55,419 bases of DNA from Phyllobates terribilis (taxonomy: Eukaryota), in the NCBI RefSeq assembly GCF_046119375.1, contig NW_027367729.1, positions 1 to 55,419 of the forward strand. Direction: 5' to 3'. The first letter of the stretch is position 1, and the number at the start of each line of letters is the position of its first letter. Both the position numbers and the translations under genes were made by a program. Positions 10,299 to 44,495 of the stretch are shown piece by piece. The notes beneath the pieces were generated by a model, which did no database searches, was not told the origin of the DNA, and saw only the letters and a program-made list of their open reading frames with translations.

Positions 10299-12830
10299 TG
10301 GTCGTTAGCATTGTTCATAGACGAAATCGCCATGCTTTGGAGTGTATTAGTGTATTCCGGACCTCACGAGTAAAATGTGTTAAACATGAGGAATACAAAC
10401 ATTTAGGTGAAGACCGAAGAGGAAACGACCAAAGGACAAAGCAAGTCGCGCACGCGAGAAAAAGTGATGAGATGTTGAGCTGAGTTCAGATGGCTCGTTC
10501 TCACTGATCCGATCTTCTATTGAGGTGATTCCAATTCGAGGAGTTAGATATTGAAATCTAATTGAAGCCCTCAAAATATGAGCTCAATCGTAGTTGTGAG
10601 TCAAAAGTGATGACGATTTTACGGATGTCTCTGTTTTGTAGAAACTAGGACGCAACCGCGCCCAGATAGGCGCGACCGCGCCCTGCTCACTGGGGAGGAC
10701 GCGATCGCGCCCTTAGAAGCGCAATCTCGTCGCCGTGGATTTTCAACCGCGAAATACTCTTCTCTTGCGGGATTGTTTTGGGCCTTTTTACCTAATTTCA
10801 CTTGGGCTTCAGGCTTGGGACTCCTTTAGGTTGTTTTTAGGGTTTCTCTCCTCTATAAATAAGGAGGAGAGCTTGCCTCTTTCACATGCTTAGTTCTAGG
10901 TTTAATTAGATAGTTTTAGGGAGATTATGTTGTTCTTCCAGGTGAAGCCTACGGATGGGCTGGTTTGTAGACTTTCTCCCTTGGTTCTAATAAAGAATAT
11001 ATCTCTTGAATTGTTTTAATCTCTTGCTTGTATTGTAAATTTATTGTGATTTGTTTATCTAGATTGACAACCTAGGTCTATAGATCTATTTCATATAGTT
11101 AGGTCCTGCTTTATCCTAATTGGAGAACTGTAGGAAATAACACGTTACCAAAGTTGAAAATACGTGTTTTGATCAGCTATTGTTCTCTGTCACTAAGGTT
11201 CATTAAGCCTTAGTTGCGCTTAACAAGGATTCAATTGCACTTTGAATGCTTGGCTTGCGCTTAACCTATGATGAACTATTAGTAATGAATTTACTAAAGT
11301 CCTTAAGTGCGGAAGAGGTTAGACAGACAATAAAGCGCACTTTAAGTTGTTAAAGCGCACCTATATTTGCACACACAAGAATTTCCAAACGGTGAGAACC
11401 CTAAGTCACTATCTGACTCGGGATAAAACTCACCACTACACTTGTATTGATTAAGAAGTGATTACAATCTCTCGCTTCAACACAAGAAGCTCACTCGTAA
11501 GCACTCTCTCAACAATACTCTCAGTTCAGCTCTGAAGAACAAAGGCACTCTCAACACTCTCTGATTACAAACGAAATATCTCTTAAGCTCTCTCTAGCTT
11601 CCTATATTCTCTACGTTTGCAATTCCTAGAGTGAATGAAATAGTACTCATTTATACACAAGTCTTAAGCTATACCTATAACTCAATTGTGTAACAAACAA
11701 AGACTAAACACAATGCCACCTCATCAATCTGTGTGCCTTGATCACTTCACCAGAATTAATCAACGGCTTGGAGTGAATTGGTTTTGTTCTTCATGTGTTG
11801 ATCCACGCCACATAAGCAATCCGTGTGCTTCAAGCTCTAACAAACTCTTGCCACACTGGCGATCCCTGGAGTAGCGTCCCAAAGAGTGTGAAGTTCTTCT
11901 CGCACCTTCCTGTGCACGCAACTTGCACTCTCCCGCTTTACCAGCCTTCGAAGCATGTAGATTTGTTCTCCTGCGCTCTGGCGCACCCTAAGCTTCAGTG
12001 GAACCTCGTGGTCAACTTTCTTCAACTTCATTCAAGCGCGTCTCTACGCCCTCGAAGCTCGATCACTCTTACTTCTTGGTCTTGAATGGATTTATTAAAC
12101 ACCGTTTGCGAAACTTACTTTCTCCGATTGGTGTTAAGCGCGACTGTGACCAGTCAAGCGCATCTCTAAGTGACTTAAGCGCATCCTTACAAATATGGCA
12201 ATGACCTGGAAGGCTTAAAAACACTAAAAGATCAAACATATTAGTTTGTTATCATCAAAACAAAGAGAAATAGATTAAGCTTTAACAAGATGATTAAAGC
12301 TCAACTAACAAGAACCTTGCCTACTTAATGGCACAAATCACTACTTGAACTAGTTGGGCTTGTGGGGATGTGGAGATTAATGAGGTGTTGCACCAAGGGC
12401 ATTGCACTTTCCTATCTATTCATGAACTCTATGTTGCCTAGGAGATAGTCTTGATAGTTTCAGGGCTAGATTTGTAGGTGTAAGGGCGTTATGACTAGTT
12501 GACTTAATTAGCCAATAAGGAACATGGATTAGGACAATCAGAATATATTAATTAATGGAATGAACCCGATTAGAAAATAGGAAGTCAATGATCAAACCAG
12601 CCATTCTGTAGTGCGAATCCGCGCTGAATAAGGTATTTTCTCAATTACTCTCCTCAATTGAATCATAGACTAGCATCAATCCAAATTCCTCATTTTTCTA
12701 TCTTTAATAAAGTTGACCTTATTAAATACATAATAATTGATAACTTGACTCTCTGTGGGATCGACCCTTGCTTACCACTCTACTTGTAGAGAAGTTAGTG
12801 AGGTTTATAAATGAATATCTTGACTCTACA
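10299..12830 (+). mobile_element. Ty3/Gypsy (Athila-like) solo LTR inserted in the gag of element A
   Basis: TG...CA ends and TSD AATGG/AACGG (one CpG-type change). It has a TATAAATA box near 10853 and the terminal GGGATCGACCCTTGCTTACCAC...GGTTTATAAAT motif. Removing it restores the gag frame. Confidence 0.8.
11269..12287 (-). mobile_element. Sirevirus-type solo LTR nested in the Gypsy solo LTR
   Basis: Shares AGTGCGGAA, GGTGAGAACCCTAA, ATAAACTCACCAC and the terminal GTTTGTTATCATCAAAAC...TTAACA with the element C LTR. No clean TSD was found, so the left end is uncertain by a few bp. Confidence 0.78.
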
Positions 12831-14670
12831 AACGGCGCTCGTCATCGATCCTTTGGCCTTTAGGTGAAGAGGCATGCTCTAAGTGAGAAGGATCATTCAA
12901 GCTACTCACTTCACACGTAGTGCGAGTGGGTGACCTGTATGGCTTATTACTTAGTGCTTGCTTCTTCTTGCAAGAGTGTATAGTGTAACCATTGTTACCA
13001 CAAAATCTGCACCATTCATTGTACTTCACATAACCATATTTGTCATTTCCAAGTCTAAAGGGCTTCCTACCCTTAATCTTGGGATCTAGTATGTTTTTTG
13101 CGTTCCCTTGGACTTGGCTCGCATATATCTTATGAGTCTTTTCCCCATGAAACCAGTAATTGTTATCCCCTAATGGTTGTTCAAGTGCTTTAACCTTTTT
13201 CTCTAAGAATGCATTCTTGCTTCTACAGATTTGAATGACCTTGTCTAAGGTTTCAACTTTTTCACTTAATTCTCTGTTGAGCTTTTCGTTAGCGCTCGAG
13301 CACTTAGAGGAATCTAGGTCATATCCTAATCTAGGTCTAGCCTTTACAAAGACAGTTTGGTTCACCGTTTTCTCATTGATGGATTCTGTTAATTTGGTGA
13401 TCTTCGCAAGAATTATCCCTAAGTCACTTTCTACCTTAGACTCCAAATCCTTTGACGCCCCCCCTTGAGGTTGCTTACCCTTGCAGCCCTCATAGGATTT
13501 CGTTATCAGACTCAGTTCTCTAGATTTTACTAAGGCCTTTTCTTTATTAGCTAACCTAGTGGACAAGTCTAGACATTCGCTACGTAGTTCAGTGACTTCC
13601 TCTTCGTATTCAGTAATTTGAGATTCTAAAGCTTCAGTATCTTCTAACAACCCTTTAATCATATTAATAAGGTCTTTTTTTTTCAAGCACGTTTAAACGA
13701 TTAGGAAATGTGTCAAGAGATTTTATCTTAGAGGCAAGGGCCTCTGCATTGGCCATGAGACATTGGCCTTGGAATCCTTCATGAAGGTCAACTTCATCAT
13801 CTTCTTCTCCCCATGTTGAGAATAACGCCTTCTTTTCGGTGGCTTCTACTTTTGTATTGGTGCACATCTTAGCAAGATGCCCCTTCTCCTGGCAATTATA
13901 GCACGTGTACTCCTTGAGATCACGCTTAGCCAAAGATGATGACTCTCCTGGTCCAACTCTCTTCTTAAACCACTTCTTTACCATCTTTGTCATGAGAGCG
14001 ACTTCTGTATCATCTTCCTCATCCTCTTCACCATCATTGATGTCCATCTTCTCAAGCACCTTTGTGAGCTTTAGTGCTATTCCAGTAGCTTCTTTTACTT
14101 TTAAGGCCCTTCAGTGGATCATCGTTCTCTTGATCAAAGAACTTGCCAAATATGTCAACTACTGGAAGCTTCTTGCAATATGGAGACATGAGCTCGATTC
14201 GTCGAGTGAGCTCGAATTTATCGCTCACAACGTAGATGACGGCCAGTGTCTGCACTGAAGGAGGAATGGTTACGCTAGAGGCAGTCAATTTGTTGATCAG
14301 AATTGTGAAGCGCGACTGGAAGGTTGACAAGCTTTCACCAGGAAGTTGTTTGAAAGACTGAAACTCCATTTGAAGCGTGAACTTCCTGGTATCCTTCTGG
14401 TCTTCGCTTCCTCTATGTATGGAGATGATAGCTTCCCACATATCTTTGGTCGTTTGTATGCCAATGACTTTGTCAATGTCCGTGCGAGTGAGTCCACGCA
14501 GAATCAGTTGTCGAGCTTTTGAGTTCTTCTCCATCTTGGGTTTGAATGAACGTCGTGTGCACTCCCAACCACCAATCAAGTTCTCCTTCTCGAAGCTGGT
14601 GAGGCTTGTTAAGGGACATGCCGAGGTTGAATTCCGAGTTCTTTATTGTCGTATTGAAATTGGATCCTGA

Positions 14671-14680
14671 TCTGATACCA
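14671..14680 (-). promoter_or_regulatory. Primer binding site (tRNA-iMet) of element A
   Basis: TGGTATCAGA lies 2 nt from the LTR end on the element strand. Confidence 0.92.
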
Positions 14681-14682
14681 AT

Positions 14683-15482
14683 TGTGGATCGTGAAGATCT
14701 TAGCCTTAACTAAAGATTGAAACTTTTATGCAGGAAAGTAAAGCTAAGAACAAGTAGACAATAATTCCCAAACGATTGTTGATTTGATTTCTCGTAGGGC
14801 TTACAACTATTAGGCGAACACACAGTTCTCAGTTTCTTTCTAAACTCTCCTAATTATTACCTATGTCCTAAATCAAGATGAACTCTCTCTCTCTGCGTGT
14901 TCAACAGCAACGTTTAATGGAAATGTCCTACACTATTTATACTATTGCATAATCACCGAGAACTAATTACCGAAAAGCATGATAATAATAATAAATAAAC
15001 TACTAAATCTAAAATAGGCGAGTATAATAACAAACTTGCTTCAACAAACAAGATCTCGAATCTGATTGATCTTTGTGAATCAAATCTTTCCTTTTATAGC
15101 GCCTTAAGAGATATCCTTCCTTTTATACGCGCTCGGTCCCGTTCAGTGTACTCGATTCCCTTGAGCACGTCCTCCTTGTATAATGCTCTGCTTCTCTAAT
15201 GCTCGATTCCTCACTCTTCTTACTCAGTTCCCTTCAGTAGCACTCGGTTCCCTTAATCATGGTTAAGCGTGTTAAGTGCTATCCTTCTAGCTGGACTCAC
15301 TCTTGTATCTTTACTTCAGCTCGTTGCTTTCCAAGCATAAACCACCTAATTAACACGAAGGACTATTGCTTTCCTGCGATATCTCACTCAATACACATAT
15401 TAGTACAAAAGACTATTTGTTATCATTAAAACTGAGACATTATTAGTTGTATGAACTAAGAGGTTAGTTCATATAACCATAA
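14683..15482 (-). repeat. 5' LTR of element A (800 bp)
   Basis: Homologous to 3005-4070. The terminus is mutated (ACCATAA vs ACCAACA) and is followed by TSD CTAAT. Confidence 0.93.
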
Positions 15483-15489
15483 CTAATTA

Positions 15490-24041: not shown

Positions 24042-24969
24042 TGTAGGATCGTTGATCTTTGCTTAAGTCGCGACTAGAGCGACCTTGTGGTCTCAAGTTA
24101 ACTTTGTTGATCGTAAGGATCTTTAATGTGCGGAAATAAACTTGAAGACACAATGTTCTGCAAACAAACTCGTATATTGCTTATCAATCCTAGTTACAGT
24201 CTAGTTTCATACACAATAAAACTTCTAAGTAAGCTAGATCTCTAAAGCACCTATACTACTCTCTCTCTCACGTTCACAAAGGCCTGGTTTCGCCTCTCTT
24301 CGTCAACACATGACGAAAATGCTATCTCTAATATATATAGACCATCTAACATCAGGTCTATAGAATCTACTCCTAAATCGAATCTCAACTGAATTGCAAC
24401 AAATAAATCTTCTAGTTATAGAAGATATAAAATAAAGAAGAAAATAAAACATATACTAAAAGATAATGTTTGTGCTAGATACTCATATCATTCCGTATCT
24501 AAGCAAATCTACTAAAACGTGAGAGACACGCTCTAGTCTCTTCCGATATTCTAAGTGCCGAAGGCAATGCGCTTTTCGTCTTATAGTCTTGAGGTCGCTT
24601 TGATGGTATATCGTCTGCAGCGACCTTCCAATGGCTTTCGCGACTATCTTCTATGTTTGGCACTAGTGTTCGTCGTTGATAAGTCTTTACAGCTTAGACT
24701 TTACAACATCTTATGTTAGGCAGATACTTGTCTGTGATTGTCGCGACCTTCTCTGTCATGGAAGCGACTTTTGGTATATAGTCGCGACCTCTGATTCATG
24801 CATAGCGACCTGCTCCTGATCATCGCGACTTGCTTTCCATGCTCTGGTCCACTCTATACGCTTCCTAAGTACCTGTACTGAGTAAACTCAATGTAGATGT
24901 TAAAAGCAAGTGTTTGTTATCATTAAAACTAGAGAAACTGAGGTAAAGCAATACTTGCTTGACCTAACA
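24042..24969 (-). repeat. 3' LTR of element B (928 bp)
   Basis: Runs TGTAGGATCG...CCTAACA and is followed by ATTTCCCCCTTTTT. Confidence 0.92.
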
Positions 24970-25419
24970 ATTTCCCCCTTTTTAATGATGACAAACTATA
25001 TAAGACATGGCATATATTTAAGGCAGCATGTTTAAAAGACTATTGAATCTTCTAATGTATGAACTTGTTTAGAGAAGCAGTGATAAGTAACACTTTACCT
25101 TGAGCAAGTCTCGCTTTGTGTTTCCATAGGTCGCTTCTTATGGTAATAGTTTCCCCTGACTTAAACAACCGGTATGCGAGGTCTATTCCCCCTTTTGACA
25201 TCATTGAAAAAGTCATGCATATATATGATTAGGGAACTAAGGCGGCTATCATGATCTACTCTCTAGAGGAATGATTGATAAGATACCTAAGCGAAAGGAA
25301 CTAAGTTATAACTAGGCAAGATAATAGAGCAAGTAGAGAAAAACGAGCAAAGCATACTTTTATATTCATTTCGACTACGCACCCAAAAAGCTACTGGCTA
25401 GATTAACCTAAGGAAGAGA

Positions 25420-27408
25420 CTAAAAAGGACTCGGAACATGAAAAAGAAAAAGACAACTAAGTTGCTTCTTCGTCAACAGGATCAGCGTGCTCCGAGGCTG
25501 TCGCGACCTGTTGTTGCTCTGGAGCTGTAGTCGCTGGTGCCTCTTGTGTTGGAGGCACATCCCCCGTTGCCTTGGCCGCTTCCTCCTCTTCCCGAGCTCG
25601 CTCCTCCTCCAGATACTGGTGGTACTCCGCCCATGCCTTTTCATAGGCTTGGCTTTGCTCAGTATGGAAGGAACTGGAATAGCACTGGATCTGGGTCGCG
25701 ACCAGCGACCAGGCAAGCTAGCTGGGTGCACCTACTCTTGATCAGTTTATGAGTCGCGCACACATTTTTGTTGATTGTAAGCAGCGCGTCCAGAATGTTC
25801 TCATTTGACTGCAGCAGTTTCTTGTTTGTGACCTGCTGCTGGAGGAAAGCGGCGAGCAGATCGCGTGCGAGGGGCAGCTCAGAGCTTGGCAGGGGGTAGG
25901 CAGAGACGTCTTCAGCGACCTCATCCATTTTACCTTTTCCCTCGCTGGAAGTCGCTTTGAACTTCACTGGGGAAGGAGCTGGTGTAGCTTTTTCTGGATC
26001 GTGAAGGTCGCGAAGGCGGCGAATGCGCTGCTCAGTCAGTATGTGGGTGCAACGTCGCTCATCCACAGGTCAATACAGTCCCAAACGCACCATAATCTTC
26101 TTAATGATGTGAGGGTAGGGAAGCGGGAAGTGCGTGGAATTTACCGTATTGATGATGTTCTGCATGATGATTTTAGGAGTATCAATAGGCAGACCATCAG
26201 CGACCGTCTTGAGGATGCCAGCCTCCCCATTCGTGATTTTGCAGGGCACGTCGGGGCGAGGGACGATATTCTTTCTTATCACCAGATGTACGAGCTTCAG
26301 CGGCCAGTGCAGATAGCTGTTGTGGAGTGGTCGCTTGTTGTCACCTGGAATGAACACCTTGTTTTTGAAGGTGACGAGGCCCCCTTGAGGTGGATTCTTC
26401 TTTTGCAGGGTCGCGTACCTGTCACCACCTGTGGGAAGCCCGAGCAGCTCACCAATCAGCCGAGGATTGATGGAGAATGTTTCGTCGTCGTGGCAGAGCA
26501 AGCAGGTGAGCTCATTGACGATTTTATCTGGGTCATTTGGAGACGCGACTGGCACCGCGACTGCAAGGTGGCGATAGAAGGCGCGAATCTGATCCGGGGT
26601 CGTAGTCAAACGGACTAGACTCCATGTTGAGCCAGTCGTGCTGTCGCAGAAGCTCAATGGCGTGCGTGAGATTGTACGCCTCAGCTAGATCTAGCAGCTC
26701 TTGCTCGACCAGGAGTAGCGGCTCAATGATTGGTCTGCCTCTGTATTTACTCTCGCCAACTTGAAGGGGCTCATCGCCGGCGTATGGCTGGGGAAACTTG
26801 AAGGGTTTAAGGTAAGTGGTGGTGGAGGTGGATTTTGGTGGTGCTGCGGTGATGGCCATGGGGGAAGAAGCTTTTGGAGGTGCTGGGGAGCGTCGAGTGG
26901 TTTTGCAAGGACACTTGTGCAGTGCCGACCCTTCAGGGGATTGTTTCTGAGGTCGCTTCCTCAGACCCATGCGCTTGGTTGCGCTAGTTGTGGCGTCTCC
27001 AGAGGCCTGGATGGTTAGGGTGGGTGGTACGTCTTCCTCAGGGGAGTGGCGTTTAGAGGGGGTGTGATCGGGTGTGCTGACAGAGTCGCTGGATAAGGAG
27101 GGACTGGGTGTGTGTTTGGAAGGTGTTCGTTCAGCCGATGAGACAGGGATAATCTCATCTTCCTTCTGTGATGGTGTGTTTTCTTCAGAGAGAGGAGGAA
27201 GGGGGTTGTGAAGTGGTGTTTGTGGAGGTACCTTTACAGAAGAGCCGGCACCTTCAGCAGAGGAGGTCATAGGCACCGGAGGCTTGCTCTGGGGTGTTGT
27301 AGCGGCAGAGAGAGCTGAAGTTGGAGCGCCACCGAGGAGAAGCCTCTTTTGTTCCTCAGAAAGAGTACCTATGAGAGTTTGGAGGGCAAGAAATTGTGAG
27401 GGATCCAT
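25420..27408 (-). pseudogene. Extra ('env-like') ORF of element B, frameshifted
   Basis: ORFs 26533-27408, 26070-26657, 25659-26066 and 25420-25731 join into an S/T/P-rich region, a conserved core (IIEPLL, QIRAFY, LVHLVIRKNIVPR, PLPYPHII), a coiled coil and a hydrophobic tail. Confidence 0.8.
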
Positions 27409-28576
27409 TTCGGTGTGGAGTAGTGGTAGTGTTTAGGTAAAAGTTTGGGATTTGAGAGTAGCGACTAAGATTGAGAGAGTGGAGAGCAAGAAAATTTTGG
27501 CAGCGATATGAGAGAAGGTAGTGAAAGGGTATTATGTAGGTGAATGGGTCAGGAATTTATAGGGTTTGGATAGTCGGTGGTCGCTAACGGCTACTTTTCT
27601 TTAGTGGGAGGTAACGGCTATATTTCTTCAGCGAGCGGTAACGGCTACTTTTCGTGATTTTCAATGTGCGGCGCTGCAGACCTAGCCGTTGAGCTGATTA
27701 TTGTCAAGCGCTTCAGTTTAATTTTCTTACCGTTGAAGCTTGCTCATCGTTGAAGATATGCCAGGTATGGTCGCTATGGTAGCCACTGAAATATGGTGCG
27801 CGATACCCTTGTAGCGACGAAGCGACCTCTAAAGAGCACAAGCGATATCACAACATACCCAAAACACGCGTACCTGTTTAAGAATTAGCAACATAGAGGT
27901 CCTAATCTATTCACTCTCAGTCCTAGGTGGGGTAGACACATGCATACATTTAAAATTGAAGGACAAAAACACATAGAATAGTACATATGCATATGCAATT
28001 TGAAAATTAGGGTAGGACTTTAATATCAAGTGGATATTCCCAGTTGTGAGCTATGAGGGTCATAGGGAACGTTACACAAGATTAGGCTAGGGACACTTTA
28101 TAATCACATATCATATCTCGTTGGGCTTTGTAATGGGCTAAGAAGCGATCAATGTGATTATGTTCATAGGATTTCAAAGAAGAGCATGCAGGTCCATAAT
28201 TTCTAGCAAGATCTATTAAGTCGCGTAGATTCACCTAATTATTTCACAAAGGCATCAACCAGAGCATGCGAGAGACTAAAGCTAATGCTAAAGTTTGCCA
28301 GTCATTTCAAGCGAGTCCTAAGTTCCCAATATCAATATATAAGCAGATAGTTCTAGTCAGAGTAGAGGGAACTTACAGACGTAGGTCGCTTAAGTGAAGG
28401 GGATCATTCCCAGAAGGAGCCTTAGATTGACAAATTGATCCTTGTTCAAGGCTTTGGTGAAGATATCCGTCACTTGCTCTTCAGTTCTACAATGAGTTAA
28501 TTCAATATTTCTTGAAGCCTGTCATGTGGCAAGAGCAGCCATTGTCTAACTACCGTCGTTCCTTAGCACTTCCAAC

Positions 28577-30756
28577 CTACGCAAGAAAAATTCAAACTTT
28601 TGGTACCCAGTGAAGCTCAGCTTGACTGGGTGAATAGTATCGTGGCTCCTTTGGAGCGTGTCCCATCAGCATGAATGATATTGAAGGTCATGGGAGCAGT
28701 TTCATAGGATTCATTATGATTAGAGTTGATCCTAGCGTTCTGTTTTATCTTTGATCCTAGCGTTCTAGGTTTAGCATGTTGATTTGCTTGAGTTTGATAT
28801 GTCTGATGAATGTTCTGATGTCGCTGGTGATAATTATCATATCGCTTGGTATGATTTGAAGGTCGCTGGTGTTGGTACTGAGGTCGCGATGATTCATGTT
28901 CATGAGCAACATCTTTGCAAGGAGAAACATAAGGCTTGTTGTCACGAGCCTGTTTCTTCTTACAGTTATAGATTGTATGACCATTGAAACCACAGTATCT
29001 ACACCAGTCGTAATAGATCACTCGCCCATATTTTCCACGTCCTGGTCTAAAGGGCTTTGCATTTTTGGTGCACCCCTTGACCTCGTGAGTCCTTGGGCTT
29101 GTGATACATACATGGCATTAGCTTTTCCCCATGATACCATTTTGACTTATGTTGGGGTTTTCCAAGACTTTCACTTTGTCTTCTAAGAACTCATTCTTGC
29201 TTTTACAAGTTTGAAGAGCCTTATCCAACACGTCAGCCTTTTCAGCGAGTTCCTTGGCTAATTTCTCATGCATGGATGAGGATTTAACATTATCATCAGA
29301 TTCATAGCCAAGCCCTCTCGCTTTAACAAACACTGTTTGATTAATTGATCGCTTTTCAATTAGGGATGCGATACCAGCGACATCAAGGATGACCCTTTTT
29401 ATTAGGTCATTAGTTTCAAGTAGGCTTTCGCTTGCCATAGAAACATGAGTGGGCGCTTGTGTAGACGCTTTAGTAAGCGCTTTACCTTTGCATCCCAAAC
29501 ACTCCTTGGTTAACAAGGTTGTTTCTTTAGCCTTTTGAAAGTCTATCTCTTTATTTGCTAGCCTAGTAGATAAATCTAAACATTCAGCATGAAGATCTTC
29601 TATTTCCTTTTCATAGCTATCATTTTCAGTTTGTAGTCGCTCGCTCTCTTCTATTATTCCTAGAATTATATTGATTAAATCAGGTTTATCAAGCATGTGA
29701 ATCTTTTAGTGAAGCTATTAGGAAGAGAGATTGATACCTCGGGAGTCTTCAGAACTTTGTTCTCCAGCCATTAGACATAAGCCTGTGAACCCTTCATGTA
29801 AGTCTGCATCATCATCATCATCTCCCCATGCAGAAGTGGTCACAAGTGCCTTCTTTTCAAATTGCTCAACCTTTGGCTTGGTGCAGTCTCTTGCTAGATG
29901 CCCCTTTTGCTGGCAATTGTAGCAGGTGTAGCTGTTGAGGTCGCGTTGGGGGTCAGATGAGGAGGGTAAGGTTCCTTTCTCGTTTTTTTAAGAATCGCTT
30001 GACCATCTTGGTCATTAAGACTACGTCTTTATCATCATCTTCTTCTTCGTCTTGGTTCTCCATCCTGTCTAGAGCTTTTGACAACTTCAAGTGACTTGTT
30101 TTGTGTCGCTTCCTCTTGTCAAAGATCTCAGCTTGTCGCCTTGTTCTTGATCATAGAACTTCCCAAAGATCTTGGCTACTGGAAGAGCTTTGGGTTTCTT
30201 CAGACATTAAGGCTATACTCCTAGCCATTTCAAATTTGTCGCTCATAGCATGTATGACAACGAGTGTCTTCTAATACTCTGGGATGATGTGACCAGCAAT
30301 GGTTAGCTTATCTGTGAGCACGAAGAATCGCGACTGGCAATCAAGGACGCTTTCATTCTCAAGTTGTCTGAAGGCATGAAACTCGCGTTGTAACACGAAT
30401 TCCTGTTGTGCTTCATGTCTTCACTTCCTCTATGAATGAATATGATTGTATCCCAGATTTCCTTGACAGTAGGGAGACTTTTTACCTTGTCAACATCATG
30501 GCGTTGTAGGCCGACGAAGATCATCTGGCGAGCTTTGGCATTTAACTTTGATTTTCCTGTAGTAGGCAGCGTCCATCGCGCTTCTGGTGATATCTTCAGG
30601 GACTTCTTCATCTCCTAATTCGATGACGTTCCAACATTGAGCGTCCATCTGCTTGATCCAAGTCTTGTGCATTTCGATCCACCAGTCGAGTTCTCCTTCC
30701 TTTAGTAGAGGTGGCTTGTTGAGAGTTTGTCTGTGAGTTGGAGTTGAGGAAGACAT
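28577..30756 (-). pseudogene. Extended gag of element B, frameshifted
   Basis: LNKPPLLKEGELDWW, EIWDTIIFIHRGSED, knuckle CYNCQQKGHLARDC, CLMA, coiled coil, second knuckle CRYCGFNGHTIYNC, and ELHWVPKV*. Confidence 0.88.
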
Positions 30757-30792
30757 GGTGGATTACAGAATGGTTCCTGCTCTGATACCAAT

Positions 30793-31556
30793 TGTAGGAT
30801 CGTTGATCTTTGCTTAAGTCGCGACCTTGTGGTCTCAAGTTAACTTTGTTGATCGTAAGGATCTTTAATGTGCGGAAATAAACTTGAAGACACAATGTTC
30901 TGCAAACAAACTCGTATATTGCTTTCCAATCCTAGTTACAGTTCTAGTTTCATACACAAGAACTTCTAAGCAAGCTAGGTCTATGAAGCAACTATACTAA
31001 CCTCTCTTTCACGTCACAAATGCCTGGTTTCGCCTCTCTTCGTCAACACATGACGAAATGCTATCTCTAATATATATAGACCATCTAACATCTGGTCTAT
31101 CGAATCTACTAACTAATGAAAGATAAAATCTAAATCATAACAACTAAATCTTCTAGTTATAGAAGATAGATACTCAACTTAAAAGATAAAATAATGCTAA
31201 AAGATAATGTTTGGCTAGATACTTGTATCACATCGTATCTAAATGAATCTGATAGAACGTGAGAGACACGCTCTAACATCTTCATATCTTCTAAGTGCCG
31301 AAGGCAATTCGCTTCGTCGTATAGTCTTGAGGTCGCTTTGATGGTATATCGTCTGCAGCGACCTTCCAATGGCTTTCGCGAGTATCTTCTATACTTGGCA
31401 CTAGTGTTCGTCGTTGATAAGTCTTTACAATTTAGACTTTACAACATCTTATGTTAGACAGATACTTGTTTGTGATTGTCGCGACCTTCTCTGTCATGGA
31501 AGAGACCTTGTTTGTGATAAGTCTTTACAGTTTAGACTTTACAACATCTTATGTTA
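30793..31556 (-). repeat. 5' LTR of element B, truncated and fused to an A-family LTR
   Basis: Homologous to the first ~700 bp of the 24042-24969 LTR. A short duplication at 31503-31556 precedes the switch. Confidence 0.88.
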
Positions 31557-32096
31557 TACTATGGCATAATCGTTGGGAACTAGTTACCTAAAAGCATAAA
31601 GATAATAACAAATAAAGTACTAAATCTAAACTAGCCGAGTATAATGAAAAACTTGCTTCAACAGTTAAGATCTCGAATCTGGTAAATCTCAAGCGAATCA
31701 AATCTTTCCTTCTATAGCTCTTGAAAGATTTCTTTCCATATATACGCGCTCGCTCCCCTTGAGTGTATTTGGTCCCCTTGAGCGCGTTTCTCCTTGTATA
31801 GCGCGTTACTTCTGCAGCTCGATTCTTCACTCTTGTGTTCGTTCCCCTCCAACGTCACTCGGTTCCCTTGCTCCTAGTTAAGCGCCTTGAACGCTATTCT
31901 TCTCACTGGACTTTCTCTTGTATCCCCACTTCAGCTCGTTGCTTTTCATGCTTAAACCTCCTAAATAACTCAAAGGCCTATCGATTTCTTGTGATATCTC
32001 ACTCAATACACATATTAGTTCATAAGGCAGTATGTATCATTAAAACCGAGGCATTATCAGTTACAAGAACTAAGGGACTAGTTCATATAACCAACA
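31557..32096 (-). repeat. Partial A-family LTR inserted in the protease region of element C
   Basis: TACTATGGCATAATC...GTTCATATAACCAACA matches about 14940-15482. The flank AAGCT continues into the element C protease sequence. Confidence 0.88.
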
Positions 32097-33789
32097 AAGC
32101 TACACTTAAGAGGTTAAACTTAAGATTGTCAACAAGGTTAACATTACGAACCTGGATAGCGTTAGTGAGATGAACAGTTCCGTTGGCCTTGATCTTACCT
32201 CATATTTTGTCACCAAAAGAAAAATTACCTCCATCTTTAGCTTGAAGTGAGAGTAGAAGAGAGGGATTACTTGTCATGTGACAAGAGCATCCGTTGTCAA
32301 TATACCACTTACTCATCGCTTCATTCTCAATATTGATCTTTGTGCCTTGAATTTCAGTTGCCATTAAGCAAGACGAGTTAGAGTTTGAGCTTGAGCTTGA
32401 GCTTGAATCTGGACTGGGAACACCTTTGACCTTAGTACAAAGTTTTACCGGTTGTTCGTCTTCCTTGAAATTGCCTTGTTCTTTGAAGTACTTCCTGAGT
32501 AACCTGATCATAGTAGCAATTTCTTTGTCCTTCATGATTCAAACTATAGAGAGAGTAAGAATCTTTGCAAGAACAACCTGAGCTCTGATACCAATTGTAG
32601 AATTGAGTTTCTTGGTTCACTTGAGTGTATAAGAGTTGAAACAAAGTAAACACAAGTAAAGCTAGTCTAATCTCAAAGATTAACTCTAATAGCTATATAA
32701 GCTAAAGAGCTAGTAGTGCGGAAGTTGAGATTAGCTACAATTTTAAGCTTAGTAAAATGATTTAAAAAGCTCGGCTCATGCAAAGATTTTTCCAAGGTGA
32801 GAACCCTAATATTCTAATAAGCTCAGGATAAAACTCACCACTGAACTTGTATTACTCCAGAGCAATTACACACTTAAGCTACTCCTAGCTCAAGTAACTC
32901 TCTCTCACAACACAAGTTGCGTTCAGCTCATACAAGTAATCTCTCTCAATCAAGCTCCTAAGTGATTTAGATAGTAGCTCTCTTCACATCGACTTAAGCT
33001 CAATATAGCTTTCTCTCTAGCTCTCTCTTAGGCTTATTCACTTTTCTCTAGCTTGTGAAGCTCTAAACTCGTTAGCTAAGCTCTTACTCGTGCCTAACAT
33101 CACTCCTATGCATGCCTTATATAGTAATTCTAACTTACTACCCTGAAGCTAGCAATTCTATATCTTGCGACATTGAAGACAACCACCTCAGCGATCCATG
33201 TGATCATATTCGCTCCGGAAATGCATCTACGACCTTTATCGCTTCGTGCTTCTTTGCTTGATCTTATCAGCTCATCCACGTTGGCAATCCTCACCTTCAG
33301 CGCGTGATTTGTCCAGATTGGCGATTCCCGTACATCCAATATCCAAAAGTATAAACCCTAACAAACTCCTTGTTGTTTCAATTTCCCTTAATCTATAGCT
33401 TCAACGACCTTCTTTTCACTTGACCAAATCTTTTATGCACTTGTGCAGGATTCCACTCCTAGACTCTCGCTGTTTGCTCTATTACTTGTATCTTCTCTCT
33501 TTTTTCTGAAGCGCGATCCACTAGCTTTACAACGACTCTCACTTGCTTAAAGCTAGTCCTTCCGTCTTCTTATTTCTTCTCTGCAAGTCTTATTCTATCT
33601 TGGCGAGATTCAACTTTTCCCGCTAGACCTTAAGCTAGTCTCATTATGGACTCAGCTAGTCCGCTTGTGCCAAAGCTACACTTATAACTCTTCGAGCTAT
33701 ACCTGTCTAGCTTAGAATACACAAAGGACATCAAATACTTAAGTTTGTTATATTCAAAATAAACATAATAATTTAGCTAACTAGTTACA
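32097..33789 (-). mobile_element. Element C: copia 5' LTR (32596-about 33789), PBS and a short gag-protease remnant
   Basis: PBS TGGTATCAGAGC (32582-32593) and ORF 32200-32535 ending ...CLMATEIQGTKINIENEAMSKWYIDNGCSCHMTS, followed by ...NLKFNLLSVA. Confidence 0.85.
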
Positions 33790-41744: not shown

Positions 41745-42808
41745 TCTCAAGGAAGGAAAACGATAAGGGTAGGTGGAGCGATATGCATGCGGCTGTTTTT
41801 TTTAGAATAATAGCAGACACGCAGAAGAGGAATAGTTATGCTACCACAGTGCTGTGGAATGTTGTTGCTCGTTCTTTTCATGAACAGACTGGTATATAAA
41901 TGACTATACAAAAATTGAAGACAAACATAACCACCTTAAGGGATTATGGTCAGCATGGTACAATTTGAGGTTCCATGTAACTGGTGTTGGGTGGGATGAG
42001 GAGAACTTCAAGGTCGCAGCTACAGAAGAGTGGTGGGAAAGGAACAAAAAGGTACAAACAATGTCTTATAAACTTATTGCTTAAACTCGTACAAGTTGAT
42101 TGTATACTTGTACTAAACATCTTAATGTTGATATTGTAGGAGAAATTTCACCAGTTCAAGAGGAACCCTCCGTCGAAGGAGATGAGCGACTTGTGGGATG
42201 AGTGCTTCACTAGCAGTACATCAACTGGGAAATATGCAGTTGCTCCTTCTGGCGACAACATGGATATTCCTATTGACGAAGGGAGGATAGAAGATGAGAG
42301 CAACGTCGGGAATGAAAGTGACTTTGATCTTGGGGGTGAGGATGATGAAAGAACTACACCCCTAGACGGCACTCAAGAGCCTCCCGCCCCTGACCCCCCT
42401 TTGTCTCAGCACAACGCTAACAACATGGCTTACTCCCCCGCCGTTTCTGGTCTTGGAGTATACAAGATGAAGAGGAAGGAAACTCCGGGGGGTAAGGCCT
42501 TTGAGAGATGTTGTGAAGCTATTAGCACTCCAAGCGCTTCATATGGGAGGAGTTGTGACGCCATTAGTAGTTCAGTTGGGGTAGCCTCTAAGGATGAGCA
42601 GAACGCTAACTATCGTGATGCTGTTGAACATCTCAACTTCCTTGTTTCTATTGACCTAATTGCTGCCAGGTCTAAGCTTTGGTGTTATGCTATGACAGAA
42701 CTGCGTAAGGAGGACCGTCGTGACATCTTTGTTATGTGTCATACCGATGAAGAAAAGGTTGCATGGTTAGAGCACGAGTATCAAATGTGCTTAGCCAGGC
42801 TTAGCTAA
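41745..42808 (+). pseudogene. PIF/Harbinger Myb/SANT-like DNA-binding ORF, 5'-truncated, one in-frame stop; exons about 41745-42051 and 42140-42808
   Basis: KGRWSDMHAAVF...QKLKTKHNHLK...VTGVGWDEENFKVAATEEWW, an acidic linker and a C-terminal EEKVAWL motif. It lies next to a Harbinger transposase. Confidence 0.88.
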
Positions 42809-42930
42809 ATAGGAGAAGGAATTGGGATGGGCTAGGTAGCAACTGTTATGTGACTTGATGTATTGTAGATAAACTTGTGTTTATTTATGGTTGTTGCAAG
42901 ACTTTTTATGACATTGATGTTTGTGGTGAA

Positions 42931-43069
42931 CTAAATTATCTATGTTTTGATGTTTTGGACAATACTTGTGTTTATGATCATGTTGTTCTAAATTATCTAT
43001 GTTTTGTTGTTTTGGACAATACTTGTGTTTATGATCATGTTGTTCTAAATAATCTATGTTTTGTTGTTT
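42931..43069. repeat. 57-bp tandem repeat, about 2.4 copies
   Basis: Units start CTAAAT(T/A)ATCTATG at 42931, 42988 and 43045. Confidence 0.9.
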
Positions 43070-43084
43070 CAAGATTTTCGAGAT

Positions 43085-44495
43085 ATGCAAGAGTATGATG
43101 ATGGAGAGACAAATGTTTCAAAACAGCAGTTACTTCAGTTCATGGAGCTTGGGCAACAGTACTTTGCCTTGGCTATTCAGCATCTGAGTGCGTCACACCA
43201 TTATATGAGGTATGTGCATAAGTATGAATGGCACAATTCTTCTCTTAGTGGGCAACAATACATGTTAGAGTGCCTTAAATTGGAGTCCGATGCGCGCTGC
43301 ATTAATCAATTTAGAATGGAGAAACATGTGTTGCTTACATTAGTGTACAAGTTGGAGAATAATTACGGCTTAACTCCTTCCAAGAACATGACTACACTAG
43401 AGAAAGTTGGTATATTCTTGTACACGCTAGCACGCTCGGGATCGAACAGGGACGTAGCTGATCGTTTCAACAGATCTGGTGATACCATTAGTAGAGCCTT
43501 TCATCAGGTACTTGATGCGTTTGTGTCGAGACACACTCGATACAATGTGTTTGCCAAATGACTTCTCGAGCCGCGTGGCAGGTCGTTTGCTGATGTGCCA
43601 CACAAAATACATTCTGAAGATCGATATTCACCGTTCAAGGTAACACTAAATATCCCATTGAAGTTCCTATTTGAGCCAAAAACAACACACATTTTGTACT
43701 AGTATTTTGATGTGTGTGTGGCATAACAGGGAGCCATAGGTTGCATCGATGGGGTGCACATTGCTAACGTCATCCCGTTGGAGGATCAGGGTCCTTATTT
43801 CGGTAGGAAGAAGTTCACGTCATTCAATGTGATGGCAGTTTGTGACTTCGACATGTACTTCACATTCATCTTGGTTGGTTCGGAAGGAAGTGCCCACGAT
43901 GCTAAGGTCTTTGATCATGCTGTTAAGACAGAAGCACTCAACTTCCTGCATCCTCCCGAAGGTACATCAATTTATGATTCCATTATTACTTATTTCATGA
44001 CGCCACTTCTATTACTAAAGTAATTCATTATGTGTTTAAGGGAGGTACTACTTGTGCGATAAGGGATACGCGGATAAGAAAGGTTATCTGATCCCGTATT
44101 CCAAAGTGAATTATCATAGATCACAATTTGGTAGTACTCCTCCCCAGAACAAAAGAGAGAAACTTCACTCTTCGTTGAGGACGACCATCAAAAAGATGTT
44201 TTTGGCGTTCTTAAGAAGAGATGGAAGATCGTTGCCGGATGTTTGCCAAGCTACCCCGTTGAGACTCAAGTGGACATCATTATAGGCTTGCTTTGCCTTG
44301 CATAACTTCATTCTAGCACACAAGCGGCATGACACAGTGGAGGAAGAAGTGGACGATGCTCCGTTAAAGTACAAATTTGACGCTAACGATGAAGAGCCTC
44401 TCGATCCCGTTGACAGAATGGGAAGTATGCGTGACCGCCTGGCTGCTACTATTTGGGCAAACAAGAGAGCATGGTTGAGGAGCCGAGACATTTGA
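43085..44495 (+). pseudogene. PIF/Harbinger DDE transposase (HARBI1/ALP1-like), defective, two introns
   Basis: CINQFRME, EKVGIFLYTLA, RFNRSGDTISRAF, AIGCIDGVHI, FNVMAVCDFD, GSAHDAKV, YYLCDKGY and ACFALHNFI, with stops and frameshifts. Confidence 0.93.

Follow-up and report, generated by a model that had tools for sequence, protein, structure and literature searches.

A predicted VANC-type protein–motif module in a pol-less SIRE retrotransposon of probable plant origin

The window analysed here is the whole stretch of 55,419 nucleotides of contig NW_027367729.1 (Phyllobates terribilis, assembly GCF_046119375.1), and its subject is element B, a long terminal repeat (LTR) retrotransposon lying on the minus strand at positions 24042-31556. 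Element B carries a short word, [A/C]GCGAC, dispersed through its non-coding and coding DNA, and an extra open reading frame (ORF) downstream of the remains of pol. On balance, it seems likely that the two form a VANC-type protein–motif module in an LTR retrotransposon, in which the product of the extra ORF, predicted to have the VANC21 fold, would bind [A/C]GCGAC and relieve the silencing of the B family. Judging from the predicted models, that the protein binds the word is fairly probable; that the outcome is loss of silencing, which is argued by analogy, is about an even call. The motif itself is real, family-wide and present at the coding level.

The contig is probably plant DNA within a non-plant (amphibian) assembly, i.e., a contamination, the plant-type content of the window comprising a PPR gene, a GMP synthase, an aminoacyl-tRNA synthetase and SIRE elements. 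The search matches listed are all in small contigs (C3048-C8000), the GMP synthase giving one match; copy counts are partial, and part of the frameshifts may be assembly errors. Published sources are cited below for their titles, the beginnings of their abstracts and passages of their main texts.

Element B and its dispersed word

By features described in PMC2829016 and PMC6317226, element B is classified from its sequence as a pol-less SIRE (Sirevirus, Ty1/copia) retrotransposon. On the minus strand it runs from a 5' LTR remnant through a tRNA-Met primer binding site, a long gag, a pol remnant, a 1-kb spacer, a 2-kb extra ORF and two AGGGGGAA tracts to a 928-bp 3' LTR, as follows:

24042-24969, minus strand: 3' LTR of element B, with 13 motif sites
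24594-24829, strand not applicable: LTR motif array, sites repeating at 20-21 and 41-43 bp steps
24972-24979, minus strand: terminal polypurine tract (PPT) AGGGGGAA
25186-25193, minus strand: second PPT, the same AGGGGGAA octamer, a SIRE hallmark
25454-27408, minus strand: extra ("env-like") ORF, with 19 motif sites; frameshifts near 26596 and 25664 break the window copy
26057-26763, minus strand: roughly the stretch of the extra ORF that, by its predicted fold, aligns to VANC21 residues 292-561, as mapped back from the model of a naturally open relative
27409-28389, minus strand: spacer from pol remnant to extra ORF, with 7 motif sites
28390-28576, minus strand: pol remnant, the protease start fused to the RNase H end at a short microhomology, without integrase (INT) and reverse transcriptase (RT)
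28577-29737, minus strand: intron-like gag extension with GAG/GTATCA donor and pyrimidine tract plus TAG/G acceptor, exactly removed in the pol-bearing subfamily B2
28592-30756, minus strand: long SIRE gag, broken in the window copy, with 10 motif sites
30779-30790, minus strand: primer binding site TGGTATCAGAGC, tRNA-Met type
30793-31556, minus strand: 5' LTR remnant of B, with 6 motif sites, cut off by an A-type LTR

The order of protease, INT, RT and RNase H expected of SIRE is found in the natural 1208-codon frame of subfamily B2 and is deleted in the window copy. Further SIRE features are the several identical PPT octamers, the last of which starts 10 bp before the 3' LTR (an A-ending PPT variant is described for SIRE in PMC2829016), the sense orientation of the extra ORF between pol and the 3' LTR, and the tRNA-Met primer binding site. 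Family B was sampled by a DNA search in which 40 of 115 candidates were scored and 38 loci fetched. Of these loci, 36 span the gag-RNase H junction, all 36 keep collinearity with B with deviations of at most about 160 bp, and the B family is accordingly pol-less. Identical 5-bp target duplications flank 19 of the 21 testable copies, LTR pairs diverge by 0.9-5.1% (24 copies), and the extra ORF is unbroken, with 657-717 codons, in six of the 38 loci.

The first-pass annotation had counted by hand about 55 GCGAC or GTCGC sites in the 7.5 kb of element B and about 13 in the 12.5 kb of a second SIRE element, element A; both figures stand, with 56 and 13 sites, respectively, and 85 in the window. 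Against the 56 sites of B, 7.3 are expected when 500-bp blocks are shuffled 100 times with dinucleotides preserved; z is about 19, and the word ranks first among 5-mers. The remainder of the window holds 8 against 6.5 expected. Base composition with zero CpG depletion predicts 9.6 sites, so the sites have been gained, not merely spared. The sites had first been remarked upon as running against the CpG depletion expected of a methylated transposable element; the overall observed/expected CpG ratio of B, 0.74, is not much higher than the 0.62 of element A, the CpGs of B being concentrated in one context.

The sites were found in every part in which they had been reported, with 13 in the 3' LTR, 19 in the extra ORF, 7 in the spacer, 10 in gag and 6 in the 5' LTR remnant, besides one in the 3' untranslated region; 29 of the 56 fall within gag or the extra ORF. 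In dinucleotide shuffles the enrichment holds outside the LTRs (37 vs 6.4) and separately in the extra ORF (19 vs 3.5) and gag (10 vs 1.4). The base preceding GCGAC is A or C in 54 of the 56 sites, which makes [A/C]GCGAC the true word; AGCGAC, which contains no CGCG, accounts for 29 of the 56. The palindrome GTCGCGAC, said to be frequent, does occur seven times and comprises only 14 of the 56 sites. Coding sites fall in all three frames and both orientations, the orientations being near equal overall (33 vs 29). In the LTR, site spacing peaks at 20, 21, 41 and 43 bp, the arrays having expanded through 20-21 bp duplications; the internal sites are scattered, about one per 130 bp, and their flanks are unrelated to one another.

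Nor is the enrichment unique to this copy, as site density is 6.1-8.9 per kb in all 38 family B loci. It also persists when synonymous codons are shuffled, both in gag (9-12 observed vs 2.1-3.0 in six natural open frames) and in the extra ORF (13-21 observed vs 5.6-8.6 in eight), with p<=0.0015 in each frame, although the shuffled copies are close kin and not independent, so that the fourteen frames count as one result. Codon and dinucleotide controls, proposed at the outset as a check, have therefore left the enrichment in place. Altogether, [A/C]GCGAC is enriched in LTR, spacer, gag and extra ORF, plus the INT-RT linker of the pol-bearing subfamily. As in the repeated motifs (RMs) of Sireviruses, a high-copy symmetric motif stands in the LTR and upstream of the env-like ORF, but the core here is GCGAC, where RMs have a CGG-CCG core and keep to the LTR, the linker and the start of the ORF.

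The extra ORF: domain, selection and predicted fold

The extra ORF is made up of a P/S/T-rich N-terminus with basic clusters, a PF20167-like domain and a helical C-terminus, and its alignment shows a set of conserved K/R columns. The PF20167 match (E 3e-9) is below the curated cut-off and is shared by 39 of 41 aligned members; the Atlas neighbours of the domain are the PF20167 and PF03078 clusters. An envelope of retroviral type was considered and rejected, as a natural open frame has no membrane or signal helix, the maximal 19-residue hydropathy being 0.92. No PF10536 match was found among the 41 members, no match (0) in a PDB sequence search, none in a viral structure library at E<=0.001, no homologue at E<=1e-5 in a word-indexed protein search and no relative in a metagenome scan with P0001; a profile-free HMMER scan returned 25 homologues, one of them a named record from olive.

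Domain variants common to at least three of 26 copies comprise 22 nonsynonymous and 36 synonymous changes, giving an omega of 0.19, compared with 0.34 for the capsid part of gag and 0.55-0.76 for singletons (0.55 for those of the domain). These variants indicate that the domain is under purifying selection, and they bear out the description of the accessory ORF as retained.

An AlphaFold model of 281 residues, built on a natural open frame, reached a predicted local distance difference test (pLDDT) of 90.6. Its first match in Foldseek was 9lnj, VANC21-DNA (E 0.006, probability 0.96, template modelling score 0.42), the next having an E of 1.9; in VIA-align, over 48,161 chains, it was 9lnk (Z 8.5, root-mean-square deviation 4.0, 197-202 residues aligned, 7% identity), the next having a Z of 2.7. 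The domain model of the A clade, 27% identical in sequence, again ranked VANC21 first (Z 8.2, root-mean-square deviation 4.8, 207 aligned, next 4.1; Foldseek E 0.11). VANC21 thus headed five of five PDB fold searches, all with predicted models and middling scores. What lends the predicted match its weight is that it covers most of the domain, lies far above the next row and concerns a protein named beforehand, since a likeness to VANDAL/VANC had been proposed from the letters alone and now gains independent structural support from the models. A shared fold by itself shows no function; the extra ORF most likely works like VANC, without being a member of the VANC family.

Pol-bearing partners and the words of other families

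A pattern search for pol-bearing relatives gave 24 matches, all of which were fetched. Two losses, of 1.15 kb of gag and of most of the extra ORF, are shared by 21 of them; among the other three, one has the gag loss alone, one the ORF loss alone and one is too truncated, and pol together with a whole extra ORF occurs in none of the 24. Family B accordingly includes B1, with full gag and extra ORF and no pol, and B2, with a spliced gag-pol and the extra ORF deleted. The gag loss of B2 extends exactly from a GT donor to a pyrimidine-AG acceptor and fuses gag with pol in frame. The GT donor is found in 33 of 35 matched B1 copies, together with the pyrimidine tract and AG acceptor, and the exact in-frame joining in 21 B2 junctions plus one B1 copy; family D has a similar donor and, in locus L042, a similar acceptor. 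To judge from these junctions, the gag extension looks like an intron, which would explain how pol is produced behind the gag stop; a deletion at AG/GT microhomology is also a conceivable origin. The extra-ORF loss of B2 lies at an 8-bp microhomology, with a matching joint in run X1.

Gapped patterns recovered 20 copies of spliced type and three that keep the intron, two of the latter without INT and RT. The third, L142, reaches INT at the contig end and, as it keeps the intron and runs into INT, a complete parent with intron and pol probably exists. A strict mutual dependence of B1 and B2 was considered and is weakened by this same copy. B2 keeps the word without the extra ORF, its sites having a density of 8.7 per kb in the INT-RT linker vs 1.0-1.3 per kb in the enzyme cores (20 copies). 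B1 and B2 are intermingled on the gag tree, with at least three label changes; they appear to recombine and, as this intermingling suggests, are probably co-packaged.

Distant relatives were drawn from 150 scored protein matches among 1674 candidates, of which 40 were fetched, and family D from 1239 candidates, with 20 of 40 scored matches fetched. Family D is abundant, young and pol-less, with LTR pairs 96.3-99.8% identical (14 copies); six of the 20 fetched copies have the full extra-ORF region, the rest being deletion remnants, and the D domain is 28% identical to that of B. Its word is AAGCGC, with 42.8 vs 3.6 expected per element (5 copies), and the excess survives codon shuffling in gag (10 vs 1.5) and in two extra-ORF frames (6 vs 1.8 and 7 vs 1.0). 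GCGAC is not enriched in D's extra ORF (4 vs 3.4 and 1 vs 1.1), nor is AAGCGC in B's ORFs (3 vs 1.0 and 2 vs 2.4). Since B and D use different words in one host, a general host bias is excluded. AAGCGC had been assigned to A-type LTRs, an attribution that fails because 8 of the 17 AAGCGC of element A belong to a solo LTR of family D that is inserted in it, A's own 3' LTR having 2. In B, D and L139, the last from another plant, different domains are paired with different words; loci L062-L065 and L077 carry B's word at a lower level, and the words of the A clade are weak.

Other motif clusters were noted. In L062-L064, a distant SIRE family, AGCGAC recurs at 21-bp steps near the INT-RT linker, about 3500-3750 bases before the domain. 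The A-clade copy L073 has a dense GGACCG/CGGTCC array at 7301-7827 (20 vs 1.3). In L139 a cluster of TCGCGCGA of the classic kind precedes the extra ORF, at 260-500.

Further features of the window are:

2999-15483, minus strand: element A, a SIRE element that has pol and, at about 4957-5334, a decayed version of the domain found in B's extra ORF
11129-12310, minus strand: family D solo LTR nested in element A, with AAGCGC array and 5-bp target duplication
31554-32097, minus strand: A-type LTR piece that truncates B

A short inverted LTR piece with 205-bp arms (81%) is located at the end of element A (2999-3552), and two ORFs at 42140-43561 resemble PIF/Harbinger pieces (Myb/SANT-like plus transposase start, judged from the translation, with a weak HTH_38 match).

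Proposed mechanism, rival readings and known systems

In the mechanism that we propose, the extra-ORF product would enter the nucleus, as its basic clusters suggest, and bind [A/C]GCGAC on double-stranded DNA. It may load cooperatively on the LTR arrays at 20-21 bp, i.e., two helical turns, a spacing that tandem 20-21 bp duplication would yield equally, while weak selection would add internal sites wherever the protein code permits, until the whole element is covered. The protein could also act in trans on partners that have the word without the ORF, such as B2 and most D copies. This protein would take effect only for a time and only in the cells that express it, leaving most inserted copies methylated and subject to normal decay. 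A broader proposal, which we hold tentatively and rate somewhat short of even, is that the "env-like" ORFs of SIRE (and of the related Athila) with PF20167/PF03078 are VANC-fold, sequence-specific anti-silencing proteins and not envelopes, that the Sirevirus RMs are their sites, and that families such as B and D have incorporated the site in their own coding sequences, letting the protein of one member reactivate the family, including pol-bearing partners without the gene.

Several observations weigh against a VANC-type role. Neither Foldseek E-value (0.006 and 0.11) reaches 0.001, identity to VANC21 is only 5-11%, VIA-align itself cautions that top Z scores of 7-8 are usual even where no true match exists, the B and A-clade models were built on one shared alignment, and no DUF1985 or PMD Pfam match was found among the 41 members at E<=0.1. 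The word is itself a methylatable CpG. Unlike in B, the motifs of VANC21 lie in non-coding DNA and are absent from the exon probes tested, according to passages of PMC5735166, and PMD-type proteins of VANC-like fold act against Polycomb or in silencing (10.1101/2024.09.27.615353), so that the fold does not fix the function. The A clade shares the predicted fold, yet it has 0-9 [A/C]GCGAC vs about 3 expected, and its own words (ACCGAG, GGACCG, ACGTGC) are weak, about 3- to 8-fold. The word had been thought family-specific, which holds insofar as all 38 B loci have it and D uses AAGCGC, and does not hold for distant families with domains about 24-28% identical to that of B, where [A/C]GCGAC is raised 3- to 6-fold (12-16 vs 3.4 in L062-L064, 7 vs 2.2 in L065, 8 vs 1.4 in L077). 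D's gag, too, shows a weak excess of GCGAC (4 vs 1.2, p 0.035), and L139 has its motif only before the extra ORF (GCGCGA, 14 vs 0.8), with none inside.

The decay of the sites belongs on the same side. Across 59 copies (non-coding plus synonymous positions), internal CpGs within the motif and CpGs elsewhere change at one and the same rate (0.054 vs 0.054), and synonymous changes alone (0.043 vs 0.055, p 0.5), which had been named at the outset as a check, do not show that synonymous sites preserve the motif. Between LTR pairs, 23 of 229 motif CpGs have changed vs 68 of 504 others. Post-insertion CpG transitions are equal in motif and other contexts (0.026 vs 0.027) and far above CHH (0.009) and A/T (0.004) rates; inserted copies therefore look methylated throughout, and their sequences give no sign of lasting protection from methylation. 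A first decay measure that hinted at protection (0.105 vs 0.190) was discarded, because it counts newly arisen CpGs as "other" and site-frequency measures erase the effect outside the LTR. Decay at the normal CpG rate, named at the outset as a refutation, is thus observed for the internal sites. In the LTR, changes common to at least four of the 59 copies are rare at motif CpG bases (2/26 vs 19/52, p 0.007); at internal motif bases the shared changes number 12/39 vs 34/167 (p 0.2). No significant conservation of the word was found in 20 young D copies. Selection therefore seems visible on the LTR array only, the internal sites being enriched and apparently either individually dispensable or no longer selected, and their normal decay weighs against the strong form of the hypothesis.

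Binding of the word could serve another end, the protein being a transcriptional activator, an anti-Polycomb factor like PMD-C or a helper of the integration complex. This is unlikely, even though it draws on the same fold and motif evidence, agrees with the unprotected CpGs of inserted copies and finds a parallel in the PMD-C domains of MAIL1/MAIN/MAIL2, which are similar to VANC and, together with DNA motifs, counter Polycomb (10.1101/2024.09.27.615353); a promoter activator needs no sites in gag or the INT-RT linker, and coverage of the whole element would better fit the spreading of a chromatin state. It is rather improbable that the word is an ordinary Sirevirus RM for host transcription factors, the extra ORF being carried along without connection to it and the fold match being due to chance or to an old resemblance. 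The CGCG core is reminiscent of CAMTA sites, but the 29 AGCGAC sites lack it; and while the middling fold scores and the restriction of measurable selection to LTR sites would suit a host factor, the use of different words throughout the coding DNA of two families in one host would not, nor would the fact that two models both ranked VANC21 first among 48,161 chains. For the palindromic, CpG-containing motifs that SIRE families carry in their LTRs and ahead of the env-like ORF, each family having its own, a role as host cis-elements has been proposed (PMC2829016); in passages of the same source, however, the motifs of the linker go together with an env-like ORF.

An action of the word in RNA, as hairpins or as packaging or dimerisation signals read by Gag or Dicer, appears very improbable. 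Maize Sirevirus palindromes form hairpins and are hotspots of small interfering RNAs (siRNAs) (PMC4728375), the LTR motifs of B are predicted to be more paired than controls (0.83 vs 0.66), four of 12 opposite-orientation neighbours can pair, and the apparent recombination of B1 and B2 makes co-packaging probable. The pairing of internal motifs, however, equals that of matched controls (0.62 vs 0.62), folding z-scores in five motif-rich blocks range from -1.5 to +0.2, neighbours of like orientation are no rarer than those of opposite orientation (16 vs 12), and a single-strand binder would be expected to prefer one orientation, whereas both are used equally. A neutral by-product of codon or amino-acid bias, local duplication and context-dependent CpG survival is largely refuted and seems a very distant prospect. 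It would suit the lack of present-day conservation at internal sites and the growth of the LTR arrays by 20-21 bp duplications; but the enrichment outlasts codon and dinucleotide controls, survival alone is insufficient for 56 sites where 9.6 are expected without CpG loss, the internal flanks are mutually unrelated, neighbouring families in the same host lack the word or have another, and the rest of the window stays at 8 sites vs 6.5 expected.

Few plant retrotransposons are as abundant as the SIRE elements, whose env-like ORF and repeated motifs have so far lacked an assigned function (PMC2829016; PMC6317226, in the passages cited). A VANC-fold protein with a family word would join the two. 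If the VANC-type reading is true, sequence-specific counter-silencing is not limited to Mutator-like elements, plants hold a large natural library of protein-motif pairs, and there is a candidate cause for the strong drop of CG methylation over the centre of SIRE in sunflower (PMC12844716). One host offers two divergent domains with two predicted words. The first-pass annotation took such a system to be new in an LTR retrotransposon. This needs qualifying, because PMC2829016 has already described repeated palindromes both in SIRE LTRs and ahead of the env-like ORF; in the literature searched (titles, abstract beginnings and passages of main texts), no source was found that ties a SIRE/PF20167 ORF to VANC by its fold or that reports a word of this kind within coding sequences.

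Among known systems, the closest in kind are VANDAL21/VANC21 and VANDAL6/VANC6 (PMC5735166; PDB 9lnj, 9lnk), with which B shares an element-encoded accessory protein of the same predicted fold over about 200 residues, a short word particular to the family that is present many times and forms arrays in terminal non-coding DNA, the use of different words by related families and the retention of the word by elements without the gene. The differences are that B is a copia LTR retrotransposon and VANC comes from VANDAL, a Mutator-like DNA transposon; that identity is 5-11% with no DUF1985 match; that the word of B is of 6 bp with a CpG and the VANC words are of 8-9 bp; and that half of B's sites are in coding DNA, whereas VANC targets are non-coding, B being known here from sequence and predicted models. 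Structural kin of VANC with specific DNA motifs have also been reported in PMD-C MAIL1/MAIN/MAIL2 with M1M/M2M (10.1101/2024.09.27.615353; PMC13547354, both also for the kinship of VANC with MAIN/PMD), but these are host genes acting on promoters against Polycomb, and B has no PF10536 match. The same preprint describes PMD-A as retrotransposon-encoded and proposes anti-silencing for PMD-C encoded by transposable elements.

The likeness to Sirevirus RMs (PMC2829016; PMC4728375) consists in a palindromic, CpG-containing, family-specific motif in the LTR and before the extra ORF, in units of 19-22 bp and in multiple PPTs. B differs in its core, GTCGCGAC / [A/C]GCGAC and not CGG-CCG, in that most of its sites are half-sites, and in that they run through gag, the INT-RT linker and the entire extra ORF. 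In passages of these sources RMs are read as host factor sites or hairpins, no element-encoded binder being proposed there; SIRE palindromes are linked to hairpins and siRNAs (PMC4728375), and the linker RMs of SIRE occur only when the env-like ORF is present (PMC2829016). The extra ORFs of Athila and Retand (PF20167, PF03078, TRP28; PMC11728184; PMC11963269) are comparable in that PF20167 is reported in the Athila ORF of sunflower and that TRP28 of Retand is a predicted DNA binder beside family-specific repeats; unlike B, these are Gypsy lineages, for which the passages cited give neither a match to the VANC fold nor a target word. Regulatory or anti-silencing roles have been raised for Gypsy extra ORFs, there too without a VANC fold or target word (PMC11728184; PMC12844716; PMC11963269). 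Finally, the pol-less make-up of B recalls the Cereba/Quinta pair of wheat, described with a gag-donor partner (PMC11302176), in which an element with gag and an extra domain and without pol leans on a pol-bearing partner. The difference is that, in the common pol-bearing partner of B, both the gag extension and the extra ORF are missing.

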